64,000 bases of DNA, from assembly GCA_038236695.1 (NCBI GenBank), contig JBBRZM010000001.1, positions 14,177-78,176 on the forward strand, written 5' to 3'. This document shows, one piece after another, positions 25,455-46,001 of this stretch. The translations under genes and the position numbers were made by a program. A model generated the notes under the pieces. That model was not told the DNA's origin. It saw only the letters and a program-made list of their open reading frames with translations, and ran no database searches. Origin of the DNA: Acidimicrobiia bacterium (lineage in GTDB: Bacteria > Actinomycetota > Acidimicrobiia > IMCC26256 > JBBRZM01). Each line of letters begins with the position of its first letter. Positions within the stretch are counted from its first letter, which is position 1.

Positions 25455-25528
25455 CGGGGAGTAGCGCAGCGTGGTAGCGCACCTGCTTTGGGAGCAGGAG
25501 GTCGGGGGTTCAAGTCCCCCCTCCCCGA
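25455..25528 (+). tRNA. tRNA-Pro (anticodon TGG)
   Basis: Cloverleaf read by hand: acceptor CGGGGAG/CTCCCCG, anticodon arm CCTGC-TTTGGGA-GCAGG, T-arm GGGGG-TTCAAGT-CCCCC, discriminator A. Confidence 0.9.
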
Positions 25529-25565
25529 CTGGTACGACGAACGCGCGCGTTACCGTCGCGGCCTC

Positions 25566-25639
25566 GCGGGTGTAGCTCAATGGCAGAGTCCCAGCCTTCC
25601 AAGCTGGTCATGCGGGTTCGATTCCCGTCACCCGCTCCA
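25566..25639 (+). tRNA. tRNA-Gly (anticodon TCC), CCA encoded
   Basis: Acceptor GCGGGTG/CACCCGC, anticodon arm CCAGC-CTTCCAA-GCTGG, T-loop TTCGATT, 3' TCCA. Confidence 0.9.
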
Positions 25640-25747
25640 TGTCATCAGCGCAGGTCAACCGCTACGCAGCGCCACTGGTCGGCAATTCTGCGCGCGTCTT
25701 ACCGTCCGTCGTGGCGCGTTGCGTGATTGACACCATTGGGGGCTCCC

Positions 25748-26461
25748 CTACTTACGTGGCTTGCGAAACTGCGCTTGCGCGTCGAGCAGCTTTTTGCGGT
25801 GCAGCGTGCGTGCCGTCTCCCTGTCGAACTTCTCGTTCCCCAATAGCTTCCCCGGCTCTGGTGGTGAATTGCCTCGCGCTTCGTCGCTCGTGCCGTCGAG
25901 CGCGTTCGCGGTCGCGACGAGCTTCGATAATTCGTCGAAGTACCCCTCGAGCAACACGATTCGCTCCACGAGGTTGTTGAGTCCCTGCTCCATTTTCTCG
26001 AGTGCCTCCCGGTGCGCTCCGTCGCTCGTGCCGTCGAGCGCGTTCGCGGTCGCGACGAGCTTCGATAATTCATCGAAGTACCCCTCGAGCAACACGATTC
26101 GCTCCACGAGGTTGTTGAGTCCCTGCTCCATTTTCTCGAGTGCCTCCCGGTGCGCTCCAAGGTGTCCGTCGACCGCCGCCAGGAGCGTGCCGACACTGGC
26201 AGACTCCCCCCACTGGGTGTTCGAGAGGCAGAGGTCCGATCGGCTCTCGTCGCGATTTTCGGTGTCGGCGCCCGCGACGAGCGACGCGAACGAATCCTCG
26301 TCGAAAGGATGCGCCACCATGACCTCAGCCGGCCCGCCTGCAGTCGCGCCCAACACGATTCGCACGGCGCCCGACTCGTCGACGATCTCGAGGTAGCGGG
26401 CGCGGATCGTATCGACGACCAGTGCGCGGTCAGTGGGCACACGGTCCGTAATCTTGACCAT
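25748..26461 (-). CDS. hypothetical protein with an internal 46-aa tandem duplication
   Basis: 237 aa. AGGAGGAG lies 6 nt upstream of ATG 26461. A coiled-coil-like unit, AHREALEKMEQGLNNLVERIVLLEGYFDELSKLVATANALDGTSD, occurs twice, followed by a basic C-terminal tail. Confidence 0.6.
   Translation of the reverse strand: MVKITDRVPTDRALVVDTIRARYLEIVDESGAVRIVLGATAGGPAEVMVAHPFDEDSFASLVAGADTENRDESRSDLCLSNTQWGESASVGTLLAAVDGHLGAHREALEKMEQGLNNLVERIVLLEGYFDELSKLVATANALDGTSDGAHREALEKMEQGLNNLVERIVLLEGYFDELSKLVATANALDGTSDEARGNSPPEPGKLLGNEKFDRETARTLHRKKLLDAQAQFRKPRK
25882..26157. repeat. 138-bp perfect-phase tandem duplication (2 copies, 1 mismatch)
   Basis: 25882..26019 and 26020..26157 are identical except for one position (ttcGtcgaag versus ttcAtcgaag). 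Confidence 0.9.
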
Positions 26462-26521
26462 GTCGGCTCCTCCTAGTAGGTGCTGGCCGTCCCCCGGGCC
26501 GTTTTGCGCGGTGCCGGGGGC

Positions 26522-26923
26522 TTATTCGTTCCCTGCCCTGGAGGTCAACGTACACGCCCGGATCGCGGGCGGGGCATCGGCGACCGGCGCGACATCCCGC
26601 TGCACCTGTGCTTCGAAGCGGCGCCCATCGACTCGGAGCAGTTTCAAGCCAGTCGGGGCCGCGACCTCGACAAGCACCGGCCCGGGCTCGTCGTCGGCGA
26701 CCCCTGGTACGCCTACCACGGCACCAGCGACTCGAGGAATCTCCACGAGGAAGTCGGGCTGCTCGCGTCGCTCAGCAACCCGATTAGCGCCGCGGGTGCG
26801 TCGCTCAGGCCAACGGACACTTCGAGCTCGTGCTCGAGGTCGGTCGCGCCAATGGTGGGGATGCATGGCCGCGTGGACGCCGGCGTCCACGAGCGTCGTT
26901 CCATGGCACATTCCATGCCGCAC
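26522..26923 (-). CDS. hypothetical protein (start uncertain)
   Basis: 133-aa ORF. Only the C-terminal ~75 aa (DFLVEIPRVAGAVVGVPGVADDEPGPVLVEV...) look protein-like, with weak resemblance to the N-terminus of the 25748..26461 product. A 7-bp GC hairpin follows the stop. Confidence 0.3.
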   Translation of the reverse strand: MRHGMCHGTTLVDAGVHAAMHPHHWRDRPRARARSVRWPERRTRGANRVAERREQPDFLVEIPRVAGAVVGVPGVADDEPGPVLVEVAAPTGLKLLRVDGRRFEAQVQRDVAPVADAPPAIRACTLTSRAGNE

Positions 26924-27029
26924 GCCGCCGCGTTCGCCGACGTTCGTGACTGTTTGCTGACGACGCGATCTGTTGAGACGTCAACCATTCCGTTCGCCCG
27001 CGTTCGCCGCTGATCGGTCTAACCGTGCC

Positions 27030-27069
27030 TCCAAGCTGGTCATGCGGGTTTGATTCCCGTCACCCGCTC
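27030..27069 (+). repeat. orphan 3' half of tRNA-Gly (direct repeat of 25598..25637)
   Basis: 39 of 40 nt are identical, starting exactly at the anticodon. The single difference hits the T-loop (TTCGATT to TTTGATT). Confidence 0.8.
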
Positions 27070-27158
27070 TGCAGCACGGCGCGGCTACGCAGCCGATCTG
27101 AGCAACCAGGCTCCGGCGAACGTCGCCAACCGCAGCTCCGCGGACTTCTGCTTCGGGA

Positions 27159-27356
27159 ATGCTGCGATCGGCTTGCCCGCGCTGTCGGCATACACGTTCC
27201 AGACCGCGGACACCGTCAGATAACGACACGCTGCTGGGCCGGGGTGCCGACCCGAACGGGCTCGCATACTGGGTCGGCGCGATCAGTCGCGGACATCGCG
27301 ACGAAGAAGTGATCGCACTGATCGTCGGTTCCAGCGAATACCTGTCGCGCCTCTGA
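27159..27356 (+). pseudogene. C-terminal fragment of a DUF4214-domain protein
   Basis: The ORF ends in TLLGRGADPNGLAYWVGAISRGHRDEEVIALIVGSSEYLSRL, matching the DUF4214 pattern (LGR..D..G..yW......G.....v......S.EY). No upstream domain or credible start is present. Confidence 0.4.
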
Positions 27357-27383
27357 GTCTCACGACCCCGAACGCGCCGACGA

Positions 27384-27692
27384 TCAGTCGTCCGCCGCCG
27401 CAAAGAGATGCAGCAGCTCAAACTCCGTGCGGTCCGGCGGCGCGGCGAGGAGCGGTGCGACCGCATCGTTGAAGGCGGCGAACTCCGGGTCGCTGTTGAC
27501 CCGATCGGCGGCCGGACGGTCAGTGAAGACGCCCAGGCCCCGCACGACGCCGCTCGCCTCGTCACCAACGACCAGGACGGTTTCCAGTGCTTCGTGCGTG
27601 CTCAGGAACTCGGCCGCGAACGCAGAGTAGATACCTGCGACATCGCGGTAGTGACCTGGCTTGGCGTGCAGCGTGAACTCGGCGACGTGCAT
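27384..27692 (-). CDS. small ABM-like (ferredoxin-fold) hypothetical protein
   Basis: ATG 27692 is preceded by AAGGAG. Translation: MHVAEFTLHAKPGHYRDVAGIYSAFAAEFL... The longer ORF (to 27929) runs through tRNA-His and is rejected. Confidence 0.5.
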   Translation of the reverse strand: MHVAEFTLHAKPGHYRDVAGIYSAFAAEFLSTHEALETVLVVGDEASGVVRGLGVFTDRPAADRVNSDPEFAAFNDAVAPLLAAPPDRTEFELLHLFAAADD

Positions 27693-27849
27693 CGACGTTT
27701 CTCCTTTTCTTGTCACGACATCCCGCACCGCTCCTGCTCCCAAACTTTCCCGATGCCCTCGATCGACCGGGCTACGCGGCAGAGACATGACGTCAGTCAA
27801 CGCTTGAACAGACCACTGGACGCGCGCACCGACGAGCGGTGCGCGTGCG

Positions 27850-27927
27850 TGGGGTGACCGAGGGGTTTCGAACCCCCGACCTCCGGGACCACAACCCGGC
27901 GCTCTAGCCAACTGAGCTACGGCCACC
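27850..27927 (-). tRNA. tRNA-His (anticodon GTG), with encoded G-1 and CCA
   Basis: Reverse complement reads G-GTGGCCG..CCGGG-TTGTGGT-CCCGG..TTCGAAA..CGGTCAC-C-CCA. Confidence 0.9.
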
Positions 27928-27963
27928 ACGATTGGGACGAGCGGATCGCATCCGCCGGCCCCG

Positions 27964-28037
27964 CGCGCCCGGGAGGATTCGAACCCCCGACCCGCAGATT
28001 AGAAATCTGCTGCTCTATCCATCTGAGCTACGGGCGC
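27964..28037 (-). tRNA. tRNA-Arg (anticodon TCT)
   Basis: Reverse complement reads GCGCCCG..GCAGA-TTTCTAA-TCTGC..GGGGG-TTCGAAT-CCTCC-CGGGCGC-G. Confidence 0.9.
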
Positions 28038-28102
28038 CCGCTCGCACCGGGACGCTGCAGTGTACCGGAGCGGCCGACTGGCGAACCGTCCGCTTCGCGC
28101 GC

Positions 28103-29014
28103 TCACGCGGATGCAGGTGTCGTGAGCACCGCCCGCAGTGCGTTCTCGAACGTCGGATGCTCGAAGCGGAAATCATCCGCGAGCAGCTTCGCCGGCAACA
28201 CCCGCTGACCTTCCACGAGCACCTGGCGCACGAGCTCCTTGCCGTACCGGAGTTGCAGCGGCAACAACGGCGTCGGCAGCACGGTGGGCCGGTGCAGCAC
28301 CGCGCCCAGGGTCTTGGTGAACTCGGTGTTGGTGACGGGACTCGGACCCGTGAGGTTGACCGGGCCGGCGACGGAGTCGTGCTCGAGCACGTGCAGGATC
28401 GCGCGCACTTCATCGGGCAACGAGATCCAGCTCATGTACTGCGATCCCGAGCCGATGCGTCCGCCGAGGCCGAGCTTGAACGGCAACAGCATACGTTGCA
28501 ACGCGCCGCCACGTGACGAGAGCACGATGCCGGTGCGCACGCAAGCGACACGAATGCCGGCGTCGGCTGCCGGGGTCGTTGACGCTTCCCATGCGCGACA
28601 CACGTCAGCAAGAAATCCGTCGCCCGGCGGACTGTGCTCGTTCAGCTCTTCAGAGCCACGGTTGCCGTAGTAACCGACTGCCGATGCCGACACCAGTACG
28701 GGGGGCGGTCTCTGCAGGCGCGCCAGCGTCTCGCTCAAAAGCGTCGTGGCGCGCGTGCGACTCTCGAGAATTCGCTGCTTCTGTTCGGCAGTCCACTTGC
28801 GCCCACCAATGCTTTCGCCGGCGAGATGCACGACGGCGCCGATACCTTCGAGCCCAACGGCGTCGATCGTGCCTGCAGCGGGATCCCAGCGCAACGTGGC
28901 GCCGGTGCCGGCGGCTCCGCGCACGAGCCCGACAGTACGGTGGCCGGAACGCTCGAGCGCGGGCAGCAGCGCAGTGCCGATGAATCCTGAGGAACCGGTT
29001 ACGAGCACGTCCAT
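28103..29014 (-). CDS. TIGR01777-family NAD-dependent epimerase/dehydratase (YfcH-like)
   Basis: MDVLVTGSSGFIG Rossmann motif and a DUF1731-like C-terminus. ATG 29014 has GGAGG 7 nt upstream. Confidence 0.8.
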   Translation of the reverse strand: MDVLVTGSSGFIGTALLPALERSGHRTVGLVRGAAGTGATLRWDPAAGTIDAVGLEGIGAVVHLAGESIGGRKWTAEQKQRILESRTRATTLLSETLARLQRPPPVLVSASAVGYYGNRGSEELNEHSPPGDGFLADVCRAWEASTTPAADAGIRVACVRTGIVLSSRGGALQRMLLPFKLGLGGRIGSGSQYMSWISLPDEVRAILHVLEHDSVAGPVNLTGPSPVTNTEFTKTLGAVLHRPTVLPTPLLPLQLRYGKELVRQVLVEGQRVLPAKLLADDFRFEHPTFENALRAVLTTPASA

Positions 29015-29115
29015 CCGCGCACCTCCGAGGTTGCGCACGCGACGCTAGGTGTGTCGGCGAAGCGCGGCAGCACTCGGGGTGGCTGTCGACGCCGCGGGTA
29101 GGCTTCTGCGCTCAC

Positions 29116-29192
29116 GCGCCCCTAGCTCAACTGGTTAGAGCAAGTGACTCTTAATCACTAGGTTCGGGGTTCGAGTCCCCGGGGGCGTACCA
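29116..29192 (+). tRNA. tRNA-Lys (anticodon CTT), CCA encoded
   Basis: GCGCCCC..AGTGA-CTCTTAA-TCACT..CGGGG-TTCGAGT-CCCCG-GGGGCGT-A-CCA. Confidence 0.9.
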
Positions 29193-30031: not shown

Positions 30032-32032
30032 TCAGAGCGTGACCGCAGCGCCGCGCGCAATTCCCCAGTTCGACCAGTACGGCGCGTCGTTGACCATGAA
30101 CGCCGGCTGGTTGTTTCCGATCGAGAATGGGTGCAGCCCCCCGAACGCGTCGAGCGTGTAGCCGCCCGTGCCGTCGGGCAGGATCACTACCGCGCGCGCG
30201 ATGTCCCAACCCTGCCAGTACGGCGCGCCGTGGGTCGCAGGCGGGGCCGGACCGTTGCCGCCGTTTCCGATCTTGAACGCGTGGAGGCCGCCCCAGCCGT
30301 CGAGCACGTAGCCGCCCGTCCCGTTGGGAAGCACTGCGATGCCGCGTGCGATGTCCCAGCCTTGCCAGTACGGCGCGCCGGACGTCGCGGGTGGGTCGGA
30401 GCCGCCCGCGACGCGGAAGGTGTGCAGCCCGCCCCAGCCGTCGAGCGTGTACCCACCCTGCGAGCCCGGGTTCGCGTTCGGCACCACCGCAATGCTGCGC
30501 GCGATGTCCCAGCCTTGCCAGTACGCCGCGCCGCTCGTGTCGGGGGGAGTTGACCCGAAGCTGCCGATCCGAAACTTGTGCAGTCCACCCCAGCCGTCGA
30601 GCGTGTAGCCGCCGGCCTGGCGTGAGATCACGCTGACACCACGGGCGATATCCCAGCCGGGCCACGTCGTGAGGTCGCGAGGATCGGCCGGCGCGAGGTT
30701 GCAGCCGACCGCGAACGAGTGCAGCACGCCCCAGCCGTCGAGCGTGTACCCGCCGGGGCTGTCGGGGAGGTCCGCGCCTCCGGGTTGATACGGGCCCATC
30801 GTCTGACCCAGCGCCGCTTGCACCGCCCGTTGCGGATTGAGGAGCGGTGCGTTGCTCAACGATGCGCCGATCGGCTGGGCAGCGTCGTCAAGCGTCGTGT
30901 ACACCGCGTTCGGTGCTGCGCCTGCTGCCCGCGTGAGTGCTGCGGCGGCCGCGACCAGCGGGGACGACAGCGACGTGCCCGACTCCGCGAGATAGCCTCC
31001 GCTTGCGTGCGCGCCGCAAATCTGCACGCCCGGCGCCGACAAGCCCTTGCCGCTCAGCCAGTTGCCGTAGTTCGAGAACCACGACCGGCTGTCGTCGGGG
31101 TTCGTCGACGTGGCTGCGATCACGCCGATGTCGTTCGCGGGATACACCGGGTCGGTCGCGAATCCCGTGTCACCGTTGTTGCCGGCCGCCGCGACCACAG
31201 TGATGCCGGCATTGATCGCCGCGGCCACGGCGCCGCTGATCATCGACGACGGCTCGTCGGGGCCACCGGAGAGCGACAGGTTGATCACCCGGGCGCCATG
31301 CGAGACCGCGTAGTAGATCGCGGCGCTGATCGAGAAGTTGCTGCCGAGTCCGTCGGCGTCCATCGCGCGCACGGAAAGAATGGGCGCGCCGGTCGCGGCG
31401 CCGGCGATGCCGAGCGCATTACCGGTGGTCGAGCCGATGACGCTCGACACGAGCGTGCCGTGACCGTTCGGGTCCGTCAGGCCATATGCGCCACCCGACA
31501 GGCATGAACCCGACAGACAGTCGGCGCCGACGCCGATCACGCGACCCACGAGATCCTCATGGGCCGCGTTCACGCCCGTGTCGACGACCGCAACGATTTG
31601 TTGTGCGAGCGCCGACGGATTGACGAGCGCGCTCGCAGCGCCGAACGACACGCGATCGAGCGCCCACTGCTGGGGCCGATACGGGTCGGGACCCGCCAAC
31701 ACGTGCATCCGGACCTTCGGCTCGGCCGCGGTGACGCCCGGCGTGCGTCGCAGCTGCGCGACCAGGGCGTCGGCGTCACCCACCGACGGAGCGCGGAACT
31801 GCTCGACTTTGACCTCGGTACCCACGCGTACCGTCGCCCCGACGTCGACCGAGCCGTCGGCGTTCGCGGTGCTTCGTGTCGTCGGAGGCACCACCGGGTG
31901 CGGGCGCGGCGCGGGAGTCGCGACGGACAGTGAAGATGTCCGGGCTGCCACCGGCCCTGCGAACCCGACACAAGCGACAAGCACCGCGGTGAGCGTGAGC
32001 AGGTGTGGTCGCCGCACACGCACCTGACGCAT
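30032..32032 (-). CDS. secreted S8 (subtilisin-like) serine peptidase with C-terminal 5x repeat domain
   Basis: Signal peptide. Catalytic triad contexts VVDTGV (Asp), HGTLVSS (His) and SGTSLSSP (Ser). The C-terminal 240 aa consist of GGYTLDGWGGLH.F...YWQGWDIAR repeats. Confidence 0.85.
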   Translation of the reverse strand: MRQVRVRRPHLLTLTAVLVACVGFAGPVAARTSSLSVATPAPRPHPVVPPTTRSTANADGSVDVGATVRVGTEVKVEQFRAPSVGDADALVAQLRRTPGVTAAEPKVRMHVLAGPDPYRPQQWALDRVSFGAASALVNPSALAQQIVAVVDTGVNAAHEDLVGRVIGVGADCLSGSCLSGGAYGLTDPNGHGTLVSSVIGSTTGNALGIAGAATGAPILSVRAMDADGLGSNFSISAAIYYAVSHGARVINLSLSGGPDEPSSMISGAVAAAINAGITVVAAAGNNGDTGFATDPVYPANDIGVIAATSTNPDDSRSWFSNYGNWLSGKGLSAPGVQICGAHASGGYLAESGTSLSSPLVAAAAALTRAAGAAPNAVYTTLDDAAQPIGASLSNAPLLNPQRAVQAALGQTMGPYQPGGADLPDSPGGYTLDGWGVLHSFAVGCNLAPADPRDLTTWPGWDIARGVSVISRQAGGYTLDGWGGLHKFRIGSFGSTPPDTSGAAYWQGWDIARSIAVVPNANPGSQGGYTLDGWGGLHTFRVAGGSDPPATSGAPYWQGWDIARGIAVLPNGTGGYVLDGWGGLHAFKIGNGGNGPAPPATHGAPYWQGWDIARAVVILPDGTGGYTLDAFGGLHPFSIGNNQPAFMVNDAPYWSNWGIARGAAVTL
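30035..30754 (-). repeat. five tandem ~45-52-aa coding repeats (GGY.LDGWGGLH.F / YW.GWDIAR)
   Basis: The repeats start at residues 427, 474, 527, 573 and 623 of the S8 peptidase. Confidence 0.75.
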
Positions 32033-32126: not shown

Positions 32127-32588
32127 TCAGCCCGTCTGGTGCTCGTGGAGATCCACGAGTACCTCGGCGGGATGCACCGGGATATCGGCGACCTCGTAGA
32201 CCTTCGCGATCCGGCCCTCAGGATCGATGAGAAAGCTCAGCCGCTTGGCGAAATGCACTTTGTCGGTGCCGGGCGCGCGCGTGCCGTACGCCACGCCGAC
32301 CTGCTCGTCCGTGTCACAGAGGAGCTTGAACGGGAAATCGAACTTCTCGCGGAACGCGCGGTTCTCCTCGGGCGTGTCGAATGAGATTCCGAGAATCTCA
32401 CAGTTCATCGCCTCGTAGTCGGCGGCCTGATCACGCAGGCCCTTCCCCTCGATCGTTCAGCCAGGGGTGTCGGCCTTCGGGTACCACCAGAGCAGCACCC
32501 AGCGGCCGCGGTAGTCGTGCAGCGAGGTCGGCACGCCGTCGTGAGCGAGGAGCGTGAAGTCGGGAGCTTGATCACCGGGTTGCAGCAT
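32127..32588 (-). CDS. bcp: Bcp/PrxQ-type peroxiredoxin with in-frame TGA at the peroxidatic Cys position (candidate selenoprotein; alternatively a nonsense pseudogene)
   Basis: ATG 32588 through TGA at 32459..32457 to the stop at 32127 gives 153 codons in one frame: ...WWYPKADTPG[TGA]TIEGKGLRDQ... This aligns with E. coli Bcp FYPKAMTPGCTVQACGLRD. There are no other lesions. Confidence 0.6.
32424..32441 (-). promoter_or_regulatory. candidate bacterial SECIS hairpin
   Basis: On the mRNA strand: GGCCUG-CGUGAU-CAGGCC (6-bp GC-rich stem, 6-nt loop with G at loop position 2). The stem starts 15 nt after the UGA and the loop starts 21 nt after it. Confidence 0.4.
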
Positions 32589-32618
32589 TACGTCAAACCT
32601 TCCCGTCGGCGACCGCGA

Positions 32619-34439
32619 CTAAACGGCGGCTGGCCGCGGTGTGGTGTTCTCGCTCGACGGCGACGGCGATGGCGACGGAGCCGGCACGGGCTCTGGCGAC
32701 CGCGATGGCGACGGAGCCGGCACGGGCTCTGGCGCCGGCGCTGCCGCCGGCAATGTGAACCAGAAGGTCGCGCCGCGACCGGGCTCGCTTGCCACCCAGA
32801 TCCGACCGCCGTGCGCCTCGACAAACCGCCGGGTGATTGAGAGTCCGATGCCGGTACCGCGGCGCGAGAGCGTCGCCTCCGGCGCTTGAAAGAACGCCTC
32901 GAACACACGCTCGTGGTCGCTGGGTGCGATTCCGATCCCCTCGTCAGCAACGCAGACGAGCACCTCTTCGGGGCGCGACACCGCCTTGAGGCGAATGGTC
33001 GACGCTCGAGGCGAGAACTTCACCGCGTTGGTGAGCAGGTTGGTGAGGATGCGGCGGAGCGCGGCGAGGTCGGCGTCGACGCGCAAGGCCGGATCGACAT
33101 CGATCTCCAACGCGTGACCCGCCAGCACCGGCGCGAGATCGGTGACCGCGTCGTCGATGCATTGGGCGAGCGAGCACGGCCGCAGGTCGATCTTCACGCG
33201 ATCGGCATCGATCCTCGCGAAGTCGAGCAACTGGTCGATCAGCCGGGCGAGTTCATCCTGGTTATGGGAGGCGCGCCCCAGGAGCTCGCGCCGTTTCTCG
33301 TCATCGAGCTTGTCCCAGTGGTTGAGCACAGTGCCGATGAAACCCTTCGAGGCGGTGAGCGGTGTCCGCAACTCATGCGACACGAGGGCGAAGAACTCGG
33401 CGCGCAGGCGTGCGATCTCTTGGAGCTGCTCTGCCGCTCGACGCTCTTGCTCGTAGGCCTGCGCGCGGGCGATCACCAGCGAGCACTGGTCGGCATAGCT
33501 CTCGAGCAGAAAACGCTCTTGATCGTCGAGTGCTCCCCGCCAGCGGTAACACGTGACGAGCGCGCCGATTGTCTCGTCACCCACGTGCAACGGCACAGTC
33601 ACGAGCGAATGCAGGCCACGCCTCGCGAGCGCGGCACCCAATCCCGCCCGCCAGCGCGGAAAACGTTGCTCGCGCTCGACATCCTCGATCATGACGGTCT
33701 CGCCCGTCGCCATCGCCAGCGACGTCGGCCCGTCGTTCTTGGTGTAATTGGCGTCGCGACCGGACCCGGCAGGTTGCTTTGAGCCGTGCTCGCCATGTGC
33801 CGCCGCGAGGGTGAACCCTTCCCCGCCCGGCAGCAGGATCGCGGCTTCGCTCGCTCCGATCGCGTCGTGCACCGAGCGCACGATCGACTCGAGCGTGGCG
33901 TCAAGGTCGGGTGTGGACGACACCGACCGCAGCGCATCGTACAACCGCTCGAAATGCGCGATCGAGTGGCGGCGCTCGCGCGTGAGCCAGTCGATGAGCA
34001 GTGCGAGCGACGCGAGGTACGGGAACATCATGATGATGATGTAGAGCGGCAGCCGCTGGTGCGGCGCGACACTCCACTGCGCGAGCGCAGCCGACACACT
34101 GCCCGCGGCCGAGAGCAGCAGCCCCGCCCGAATTCCCGAGAGCGGCGTGCGGAAAACAACAGCAAGGGCGAGCGTGAACAGCGCGGGAATGAACAAGCCC
34201 GGGATGAGCACCACGGCGCTGTACAACATGACGACGCCGGCCACGGAGTCGATCGTGTACGCCAGCGTCAGCGACTTGCGACCGATTACCAGATCAGCCA
34301 GCGTCGTGAACAGCGTGTAGCCGCCGACGAGGACCGCTGTTTCGAGCCGGGCACCGCGCGGGAAACCCGGCACGAGCGGCGTGATCACCGCGAACAAGAC
34401 CCCGAGCGCGATGCGGAGTTGGATGGAGCGCCGGTGCAC
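32619..34439 (-). CDS. membrane-bound GAF-domain sensor histidine kinase (no adjacent response regulator)
   Basis: About 5-6 N-terminal TM segments, a GAF domain, H-box FFALVSHELRTPL, an HATPase_c domain, and a Pro/Ser/Ala-rich C-terminal tail. Start set at GTG 34439 because the ORF extension to 34634 overlaps tRNA-Leu. Confidence 0.8.
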   Translation of the reverse strand: MHRRSIQLRIALGVLFAVITPLVPGFPRGARLETAVLVGGYTLFTTLADLVIGRKSLTLAYTIDSVAGVVMLYSAVVLIPGLFIPALFTLALAVVFRTPLSGIRAGLLLSAAGSVSAALAQWSVAPHQRLPLYIIIMMFPYLASLALLIDWLTRERRHSIAHFERLYDALRSVSSTPDLDATLESIVRSVHDAIGASEAAILLPGGEGFTLAAAHGEHGSKQPAGSGRDANYTKNDGPTSLAMATGETVMIEDVEREQRFPRWRAGLGAALARRGLHSLVTVPLHVGDETIGALVTCYRWRGALDDQERFLLESYADQCSLVIARAQAYEQERRAAEQLQEIARLRAEFFALVSHELRTPLTASKGFIGTVLNHWDKLDDEKRRELLGRASHNQDELARLIDQLLDFARIDADRVKIDLRPCSLAQCIDDAVTDLAPVLAGHALEIDVDPALRVDADLAALRRILTNLLTNAVKFSPRASTIRLKAVSRPEEVLVCVADEGIGIAPSDHERVFEAFFQAPEATLSRRGTGIGLSITRRFVEAHGGRIWVASEPGRGATFWFTLPAAAPAPEPVPAPSPSRSPEPVPAPSPSPSPSSENTTPRPAAV

Positions 34440-34542
34440 TCGACTGCGGGCGGGCCCCCAGGTGGGATCGCTGGACGCGCTGAACGCGCGAACCGTCCGC
34501 TGGCGAAGGGAAGCGGCGAGATCCCGATAGCGTGGTCGAGTC

Positions 34543-34624
34543 GCGAGCGTGGCGGAACTGGCAGACGCGCCGGGTTTAGGTCCCGGTGTCTTCGGACGTG
34601 GGGGTTCGAGTCCCTCCGCTCGCA
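34543..34624 (+). tRNA. tRNA-Leu (anticodon TAG)
   Basis: GCGAGCG..CCGGG-TTTAGGT-CCCGG, long variable arm TGTCTTCGGACGT, T-arm GGGGG-TTCGAGT-CCCTC, CGCTCGC-A. Confidence 0.9.
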
Positions 34625-34853
34625 CTGGATCCATAACCCCCTCATGACCTGCTGGTACCCCGGCTTATTGACCCACCGCATGCTGTTTGAAGTTGACCAT
34701 GGCGCCAACGATCAAGGTTCAACGTGCCCGCATTCGTAGCCTCCGCTGGGGTCTGAGTAGATACTGCGTATAAAGTACCCTAAAACGGGCGGCTCGTAGA
34801 ACGGGCGCGGAGCAGTAGGTGGAACCGCGACGATCGCGAGCGTGGGGGAAGCC

Positions 34854-45643: not shown

Positions 45644-46001
<358 letters not shown>

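Follow-up and report, generated by a model that had tools for sequence, protein, structure and literature searches.

The selenocysteine (Sec) insertion sequence (SECIS) of Escherichia coli fdhF possesses a minimal 17-nt upper stem-loop that lies 11 nt after the UGA codon, with the loop residues G23-U24 and a bulged U17 being contacted by SelB. We analyzed a 64,000-nt stretch of DNA from an Acidimicrobiia bacterium (contig JBBRZM010000001.1, positions 14,177–78,176; hereafter the window), in which a hairpin at positions 32441..32424 of the minus strand is very probably the upper stem-loop of a bacterial SECIS located inside the coding region of a PrxQ/BCP-type peroxiredoxin, and probably the whole functional core of that SECIS. 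Like the fdhF element, it is a short GC-rich coding hairpin with a loop G-U at a fixed distance from the UGA, and in both cases recognition by the C-terminal part of SelB at the mRNA entrance of the ribosome is presumed. The two elements differ in that the window stem starts 15 rather than 11 nt after the UGA, which places the G-U at nucleotides 26-27 instead of 23-24, one codon further; in addition, the window stem is perfect, without the bulged U, and bears no sequence similarity to that of fdhF.

The general bacterial model (bSECIS) was formulated by Zhang and Gladyshev in 2005 (bSECISearch) and is restated in PMC13188914 (Fig. 2A; see also PMC10778597). It describes a loop of 3–9 nt on a stem of 4–16 bp, 16–37 nt between the UGA and the loop, and a free energy of −7.5 kcal/mol or lower, with G at loop position 1, 2 or both and, in most cases, G or U as the next base (PMC13188914). 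The window hairpin agrees on all four counts, with a 6-nt loop on a 6-bp stem, G2-U3 in the loop, a UGA-to-loop distance of 21 nt and a free energy of −9.3 kcal/mol for the 18-nt hairpin alone; it departs from the consensus in having no conserved lower stem. The mechanism is therefore not new: the element fits the published model and is an ordinary case in a Sec-containing peroxiredoxin of the TxxU type. These peroxiredoxins (PF00578/COG1225) have been a recognized selenoprotein family since the first prokaryotic selenoproteome surveys (PMC1088965, PMC5029168, PMC13188914), ranked second in abundance among selenoprotein families in the Sargasso Sea data (PMC1088965) and were present in 78 sequenced organisms as of 2016 (PMC5029168). 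The window gene shares with them the AhpC/TSA fold, the PxxxTxxU motif with Sec at the peroxidatic position, widespread Cys homologues and a SECIS directly downstream of the UGA. It differs in that its clade is made up of metagenome-assembled genomes (MAGs) of soil and freshwater Acidimicrobiia, is not captured by NCBIfam and is truncated in public annotation; in the literature, we found no paper naming this clade.

The gene and the parts of the proposed element are the following, each with the evidence that defines it:
32127..32588, minus strand: PrxQ/BCP-type peroxiredoxin gene with an internal UGA read through (translation, Pfam)
32459..32457, minus strand: in-frame UGA, proposed Sec codon at the peroxidatic-Cys position (alignment with Cys homologues)
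32442..32456, minus strand: 15-nt spacer ACGAUCGAGGGGAAG from the UGA to the stem, encoding T-I-E-G-K (sequence)
32436..32441, minus strand: 5' arm GGCCUG (Gly GGC, Leu CUG) of the putative SECIS upper stem (sequence, conservation, consensus fold)
32430..32435, minus strand: apical loop CGUGAU (Arg CGU, Asp GAU) (loop conservation, codon bias)
32424..32429, minus strand: 3' arm CAGGCC (Gln CAG, Ala GCC) of the putative SECIS upper stem (covariation with the 5' arm)
32400..32402, minus strand: Cys codon UGU, residue 63, candidate resolving Cys (clade conservation)

The peroxiredoxin gene runs from an ATG at 32588..32586 through 153 codons to a final stop at 32129..32127. Its internal UGA is aligned to the Cys of the TPGCT motif in Cys homologues. 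The read-through protein matches the Pfam family AhpC-TSA (PF00578) over residues 4–129 with an E-value of 1.1e-32, Redoxin being matched as well, and its active site WWYPKADTPG-U-TIEG (P-KAD-T-PG-U) fits the PxxxTxxU motif of Sec-containing peroxiredoxins (Prx, TxxU). No NCBIfam model cutoff is reached: the best model, NF006960, reaches 111 bits where its cutoff is 140, and the model for PrxU of the Eubacterium acidaminophilum type (NF040737) reaches 52 bits where 270 are required. The window protein is thus PrxQ/BCP-like and belongs to a different peroxiredoxin subfamily from PrxU. The usual BCP resolving Cys, five residues after the peroxidatic position, is present in the Cys form P0005 and is replaced by Lys or Gln in the window clade. 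Cys63 is among the columns conserved at 90% or more, with TGC or TGT in 34 of 35 close orthologues, and could be the candidate resolving cysteine for a selenenyl-sulfide. On both sides of the TGA, the two halves of the gene show high G+C at third codon positions (GC3) and amino-acid conservation across the family.

Public gene calls for the family are systematically wrong. The peroxiredoxin is split into open reading frames (ORFs) of 43 and 93 codons, and a protein search returned dozens of clusters, 93–94 residues long, that are limited to the portion downstream of the TGA. The JGI protein records P0001-P0004, P0007 and P0008 carry W at the active site, the result of translating TGA with code 4; P0009 and the loci L106:692-1153 and L108:207-668 are also among the affected records.

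On the minus strand, the DNA that follows the TGA reads ACGATCGAGGGGAAG (15 nt, 32456..32442) and then the 5' arm GGCCTG; the 3' arm is directly followed by GCC. The first-pass annotation, made from this DNA alone, had described a perfect 6-bp stem with five G-C pairs closing a 6-nt loop with G at its second position, a stem starting 15 nt and a loop starting 21 nt after the UGA, within the 16–37 nt range, and a structure lying wholly inside the codons G-L-R-D-Q-A. All of this is borne out at 32441..32424, the last point by the translation. Its further expectation, that the hairpin be the minimum-free-energy (MFE) structure in context, holds for most foldings: the hairpin is included in the MFE structure of a 141-nt context, has a pair probability of 0.9–1.0 in local contexts by partition function, and reaches 0.98 or more when only the mRNA downstream of a ribosome positioned on the UGA is folded. 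It fails in one truncated context of 63 nt, where another structure is preferred. In a global fold of 574 nt, the probability of the hairpin is 0.13.

The UGA is conserved far beyond the window. With each species represented by a single genome, a scan yielded 80 loci, 77 of which carry TGA at the same codon while three carry TGC. The carriers are mostly Acidimicrobiia MAGs, together with Gamma- and Alphaproteobacteria, Acidobacteriota and Binataceae; the Acidimicrobiia relatives reach a protein identity of 77% and share the same tRNA-Leu and tRNA-Lys neighborhood. Near-identical copies were also found in three independent metagenome samples or contigs, all with the TGA and the hairpin; two of them cover the gene from end to end and show 8–9 differences from the window over 462 nt.

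The stem is conserved as a structure. Over an alignment of 56 orthologues sharing the window's hairpin register, RNAalifold predicts this 6-bp hairpin as the sole structure and 335 of the 336 core stem cells are paired. Pairing is preserved through replacements of C-G by U-A in eight orthologues (CUG/CAG to UUG/CAA, both synonymous) and of G-C by A-U in one, in addition to seven wobble changes. When all Sec forms are considered, with the 5' arm and the loop start fixed and three registers allowed for the 3' arm, giving a loop of 5, 6 or 7 nt, 64 of 70 forms pair at all six positions and the remaining six pair at five; Cys forms treated identically pair at one to six. The register was chosen per sequence, a procedure that leans towards pairing, and the Cys control was handled in the same way. 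Among the 14 distinct stem variants of Sec forms, changes on both sides are seen at five of the six pairs, and 96% of the cells are paired, versus 78% in shuffles and 32–57% when the partners are slid by one or two columns. Conservation and compensatory changes, both named as checks by the first-pass annotation, are thus found. Five of the variants replace amino acids and keep the pairing (5' arm / 3' arm):
A-L-R-D-R-A: GCCCUG / CAGGGC
A-L-R-D-N-A: GCGUUG / CAACGC
G-L-R-D-R-A: GGGCUC / GAGCCC
G-F-R-D-R-I: GGGUUC / GAAUCC
S-L-R-D-Q-A: AGCCUG / CAGGCU

Codon choice within the hairpin is nearly frozen as well. Synonymous diversity, computed pairwise and per codon over 35 close Sec orthologues, takes these values in the element:
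Stem Gly: GGC in 33/35, diversity 0.11
Stem Leu: CUG in 35/35, diversity 0
Loop Arg: CGU in 33/35, diversity 0.11
Stem Gln: CAG in 35/35, diversity 0
Stem Ala: GCC in 34/35, diversity 0.06

The other Gly, Leu and Arg codons of the gene mostly have diversities of about 0.4–0.7. In the window as a whole, CUG accounts for 30% of Leu codons, GCC for 36% of Ala codons and CGU for only 13% of Arg codons, and Arg elsewhere in the peroxiredoxin gene is encoded by CGC or CGG. The loop Arg is nevertheless CGU in 63 of 65 Sec forms of the window hairpin type, versus 2 of 20 Arg-bearing Cys forms (Fisher p = 3e-14). The U of this codon completes the loop G-U. Every Sec form of the window hairpin type retains the G, and 63 of 65 retain the U; CGUGA is almost invariant among the Sec forms whose loop starts at the window position. 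We propose the G-U at 32434..32433 as the predicted SelB contact.

The Cys homologues compared comprise 24 distinct forms, 21 of which have no hairpin and encode other peptides at this place (GLRDLA, SIRDRA, ELSSRI, TFRDHY and others). On a simple bSECIS test, the pass rate is 82% for Sec forms and 17% for Cys forms (Mann-Whitney p = 3e-8); of the 64 passing Sec forms, 60 have their loop at the window's offset. Since these 21 Cys forms have drifted to other peptides without the hairpin, the conservation of the peptide in Sec forms would come from the RNA and not the reverse, as the comparison suggests; amino-acid conservation does not explain the frozen synonymous sites, the fixed rare CGU and the replacements that preserve pairing. 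What one would look for in a functional SECIS is therefore present, namely an in-frame UGA that is conserved and aligned to Cys, with a stem that covaries in Sec forms and decays in most Cys forms.

A second putative selenoprotein gene in relatives offers an independent comparison:
L003:9311-9988, L004:9308-9988, L006:9381-9989, L012:2770-3318 and L017:9371-9988: AhpD/CMD-like gene of five close relatives, directly upstream of their Sec-peroxiredoxin gene

This gene (Pfam CMD, 7e-14) carries an in-frame TGA in a C-H-Y-U (CxxU) motif and ends about 13 nt before the peroxiredoxin start in all five. Its UGA is followed by UCGCGCUC-GGUCG-GAGCG(U/C)GG, an 8-bp stem closing a 5-nt loop that starts 21 nt after the UGA. 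It resembles the window hairpin in its GC-rich perfect stem, its loop offset of 21 nt and a G-U at nucleotides 26-27 counted from the U of the UGA, and differs from it in the longer stem, the loop GGUCG and an unrelated sequence and peptide. The comparison with other selenoprotein genes that the first-pass annotation had recommended thus yields a match in loop distance and in G-U positions. Two unrelated coding sequences with a G-U at the same distance from the UGA are what a common SelB would require. Only fragments of the AhpD-like gene are left in L007; in the window, the gene is absent, and a GAF histidine kinase gene lies upstream of the peroxiredoxin instead. Selenoprotein genes of the peroxiredoxin and AhpD-like types have been recorded together in operons (PMC13188914).

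By analogy with the established bacterial pathway, we infer SelB binding, Sec insertion and the presence of selA, selB, selC and selD. With the UGA 32459..32457 in the A site, the first ~13–15 downstream nucleotides would lie inside the mRNA channel, and the folded 18-nt hairpin, starting 15 nt after the UGA, would be positioned at its entrance. SelB, loaded with Sec-tRNA(Sec) and GTP, would bind the apical loop (G-U 32434..32433) and the top of the stem and would bring the Sec-tRNA to the UGA, competing there with release factor 2. Afterwards, the ribosome would unwind the hairpin and decode it as G-L-R-D-Q-A, the predicted product being a 153-residue peroxiredoxin with Sec as its peroxidatic residue.

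Three further features were noted around the UGA. The Thr codon that follows it (32454..32456) is ACG in all 35 close Sec orthologues, against an almost equal share of ACG and ACC in the window (0.46 and 0.44), and no conserved pairing partner was found for this invariant codon, which may reflect a context effect on UGA decoding or termination; in distant Sec forms, the same Thr is encoded by ACC, ACU or ACA. A helix formed around the UGA in the 141-nt MFE structure by CCCCU (upstream) and AGGGG (downstream) was discarded, as it involves a stretch occupied by the decoding ribosome. Further downstream, a 9-bp hairpin, UGAGAUUCU-CGG-AAUCUCA (32381..32401, minus strand; −9.4 kcal/mol; 58–78 nt after the UGA), is encoded by C-E-I-L-G-I-S with the rare codons AUU, GGA and UCA. 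It was rejected as a signal: it occurs only with the peptide E-I-L-G-I-S, is weaker in close relatives and is absent from other Sec forms, and is probably a by-product of a palindromic peptide.

Several observations weigh against the SECIS assignment, and some of them can be read in favor of a simple by-product, in which GLRDQA written in preferred GC-rich codons happens to be self-complementary and Sec insertion, if any, depends on something else. When the peptide is kept fixed and synonymous codons are redrawn from the window's own usage, 10.8% of trials give the same 6-bp stem and 21% give some hairpin of 6 bp or more within the SECIS range, the stem together with the CGU codon being obtained in 1.5%; in the 63-nt fold, the stability is no better than that of shuffles (z = −0.08). 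Taken as a single sequence, the window hairpin is statistically not unusual and only suggestive. The downstream hairpin at 58–78 nt, stronger and not conserved, is clearly a by-product of this sort, arising from E-I-L-G-I-S. The first-pass annotation had stated that finding the same hairpin in Cys orthologues would mean that it reflects amino-acid conservation only; the hairpin is lacking in the 21 Cys forms described above, and the stem is kept in three that encode GLRDQA, L081, L082 and L101. The loops of these three are CGCGAC, CGGGAC and CGUGAC, respectively, so that two have lost the loop U and L101 keeps CGU. The closest relatives of all three are Sec forms (67–79% identity), and they look like recent Sec-to-Cys switches with a fossil SECIS not yet decayed. 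Because of them the stem alone is not diagnostic, and GLRDQA with GC-rich codons can produce or preserve it for some time. Moreover, most stem positions are invariant within the close clade, and the covariation comes largely from distant relatives and from the per-sequence register. The loop CGUGAU also misfits the commonest sub-pattern of the bSECIS consensus (N1-N2 pairing), and Rfam gives no SECIS match, either over the whole window at gathering thresholds or at 32300..32600 with E ≤ 10, a negative that is uninformative in that bacterial SECIS are barely represented there and have essentially no general model. That the hairpin goes beyond chance is judged from the comparative evidence, not from single-sequence statistics. 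The codons CUG, GCC and above all CGU are not preferred ones, yet they are fixed in 33–35 of 35 orthologues while other synonymous sites are mixed; amino-acid changes in Sec forms are accompanied by paired changes that keep the stem; most Cys forms have drifted away from both peptide and hairpin; and RNAalifold over the 56 orthologues predicts no alternative downstream SECIS candidate. An accidental origin is accordingly improbable. Within the window, a hairpin following the SECIS rules (≤ −7.5 kcal/mol) is found after only one of the 36 TGAs flanked on both sides by open high-GC3 frames, that of the peroxiredoxin; the remaining 35 correspond to gene junctions or shadow frames, none of them with a SECIS-like hairpin, and no other selenoprotein gene was found in the window.

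The Sec machinery is the other point on which the assignment as a SECIS is exposed. ARAGORN detects no tRNA-Sec in the 64-kb window or in the flanks of 60 relatives; selA, selB and selD are absent from the window and were not found in the relatives' flanks; and tblastn with E. coli SelD and SelA (approximate queries) against 1.38 Mb of window, flanks and other contigs gives no match, which is a weak negative. The Sec trait does exist in the class Acidimicrobiia, as a preprint (bioRxiv 10.64898/2026.04.03.716425) reports the machinery in each of the 84 complete genomes from another of its orders. Decoding independent of SelB, by reassignment of UGA to Trp or Gly or by near-cognate read-through with the hairpin merely slowing the ribosome, could draw on this lack of machinery in the DNA searched and on the JGI records that translate the site as W. 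A reassigned code is opposed by the fact that TGA is the usual stop in the window, where it terminates 19 of the 28 Pfam-supported ORFs. The catalytic site, moreover, works only with Cys or Sec, Trp and Gly being inactivating according to established peroxiredoxin chemistry (PxxxTxxU, PMC13188914), and a conserved G-U in a small loop at a fixed distance, common to an unrelated neighboring gene, is what marks recognition by SelB and not a generic roadblock; we consider such decoding very unlikely. Equally doubtful is a larger or offset SECIS of which the hairpin would be only the tip, with a second helix formed by UCGAGG of the spacer and a downstream CU(A/U)CGA. This lower helix is seen in the MFE folds of the window and of several close relatives, and gamma- and alphaproteobacterial relatives with weak upper stems (−4.6 kcal/mol) have longer lower helices. 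It was rejected as a conserved part, since it appears in single-sequence folds only and the consensus of 56 orthologues retains nothing but the 6-bp hairpin; in the window, it is interrupted by Tyr UAC replacing Phe UUC, and a seventh G-C pair present in 36 of the 56 orthologues is missing. Finally, the 43-aa and 93-aa fragments given by automatic annotation might suggest a pseudogene or an assembly error, in which the TGA would be a true stop and the hairpin irrelevant. Sequencing error and pseudogene are both excluded by the near-identical TGA copies in three independent samples, and this explanation is effectively refuted, since 77 of 80 species-level genomes, drawn from several phyla, share the TGA codon, both halves have high GC3 and conserved residues, and the orthologues are free of frameshifts or scattered stops.

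The SECIS of this peroxiredoxin family is not built in one way only. In the Acidobacteriota and Binataceae Sec forms L049, L055, L057, L063, L069, L070, L072 and L074, a shifted hairpin, GUCGCGG-GUU-CCGCGAC, spans 12–30 nt after the UGA, with the stem starting at ~10–11 nt and the loop at 17 nt; it shows a compensatory change of its own, G-C to C-G, in L070 and L074. Four hairpin designs are thus found in the family, three registers around the near-invariant CGUGA and the shifted form with the GUU loop. The shifted hairpin suggests that the SECIS may have been rebuilt within one protein family. Tentatively, and somewhat short of an even chance, the SECIS and not the enzyme may dictate six codons of the peroxiredoxin, the signal having been rebuilt several times.

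The gene lies in the order tRNA-Leu(UAG), kinase, peroxiredoxin, tRNA-Lys/Arg/His, which is syntenic in the Acidimicrobiia relatives. The upstream GAF histidine kinase (32619..34634) ends in a duplicated Pro/Ser-rich stretch, PEPVPAPSPS(R/P)SPEPVPAPSPSPSPS (32640..32760, minus strand), which corresponds to a ~36-nt tandem direct repeat in the coding sequence. The downstream neighbor (30032..32032, minus strand) encodes a 666-aa subtilase (Peptidase_S8), also found next to the gene in the close relative L107, whose C-terminal half carries about five repeats of the motif GGYTLDGWGGLH...W(Q/P)GWDIAR. Genes for tRNAs (Pro, Gly, His, Arg, Lys and Leu) and for a transfer-messenger RNA (tag ADHNMAIAA) lie around the locus at 25455..29192, 34543..34625 and 45644..46001.

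On the tentative reading that the SECIS dictates the six codons, the near-identical loop of the acidimicrobial, gammaproteobacterial and alphaproteobacterial genes would point to joint transfer of gene and signal across phyla whose SelB proteins accept the same loop, making the family a natural data set for SelB-SECIS specificity. If the hairpin is indeed a SECIS, the many natural hairpin variants of the family would be a source from which the rules of this recognition could be inferred. The family would also provide a clean example of a coding-region RNA signal that constrains both codon choice and protein sequence. Annotation would be corrected from fragments or a Trp form to a selenoenzyme of 153 residues, widespread in Acidimicrobiia from soil and freshwater and in several other phyla. 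Selenium use would be implied for the bacteria that carry it, which bears on their redox physiology and on their trace-element needs.

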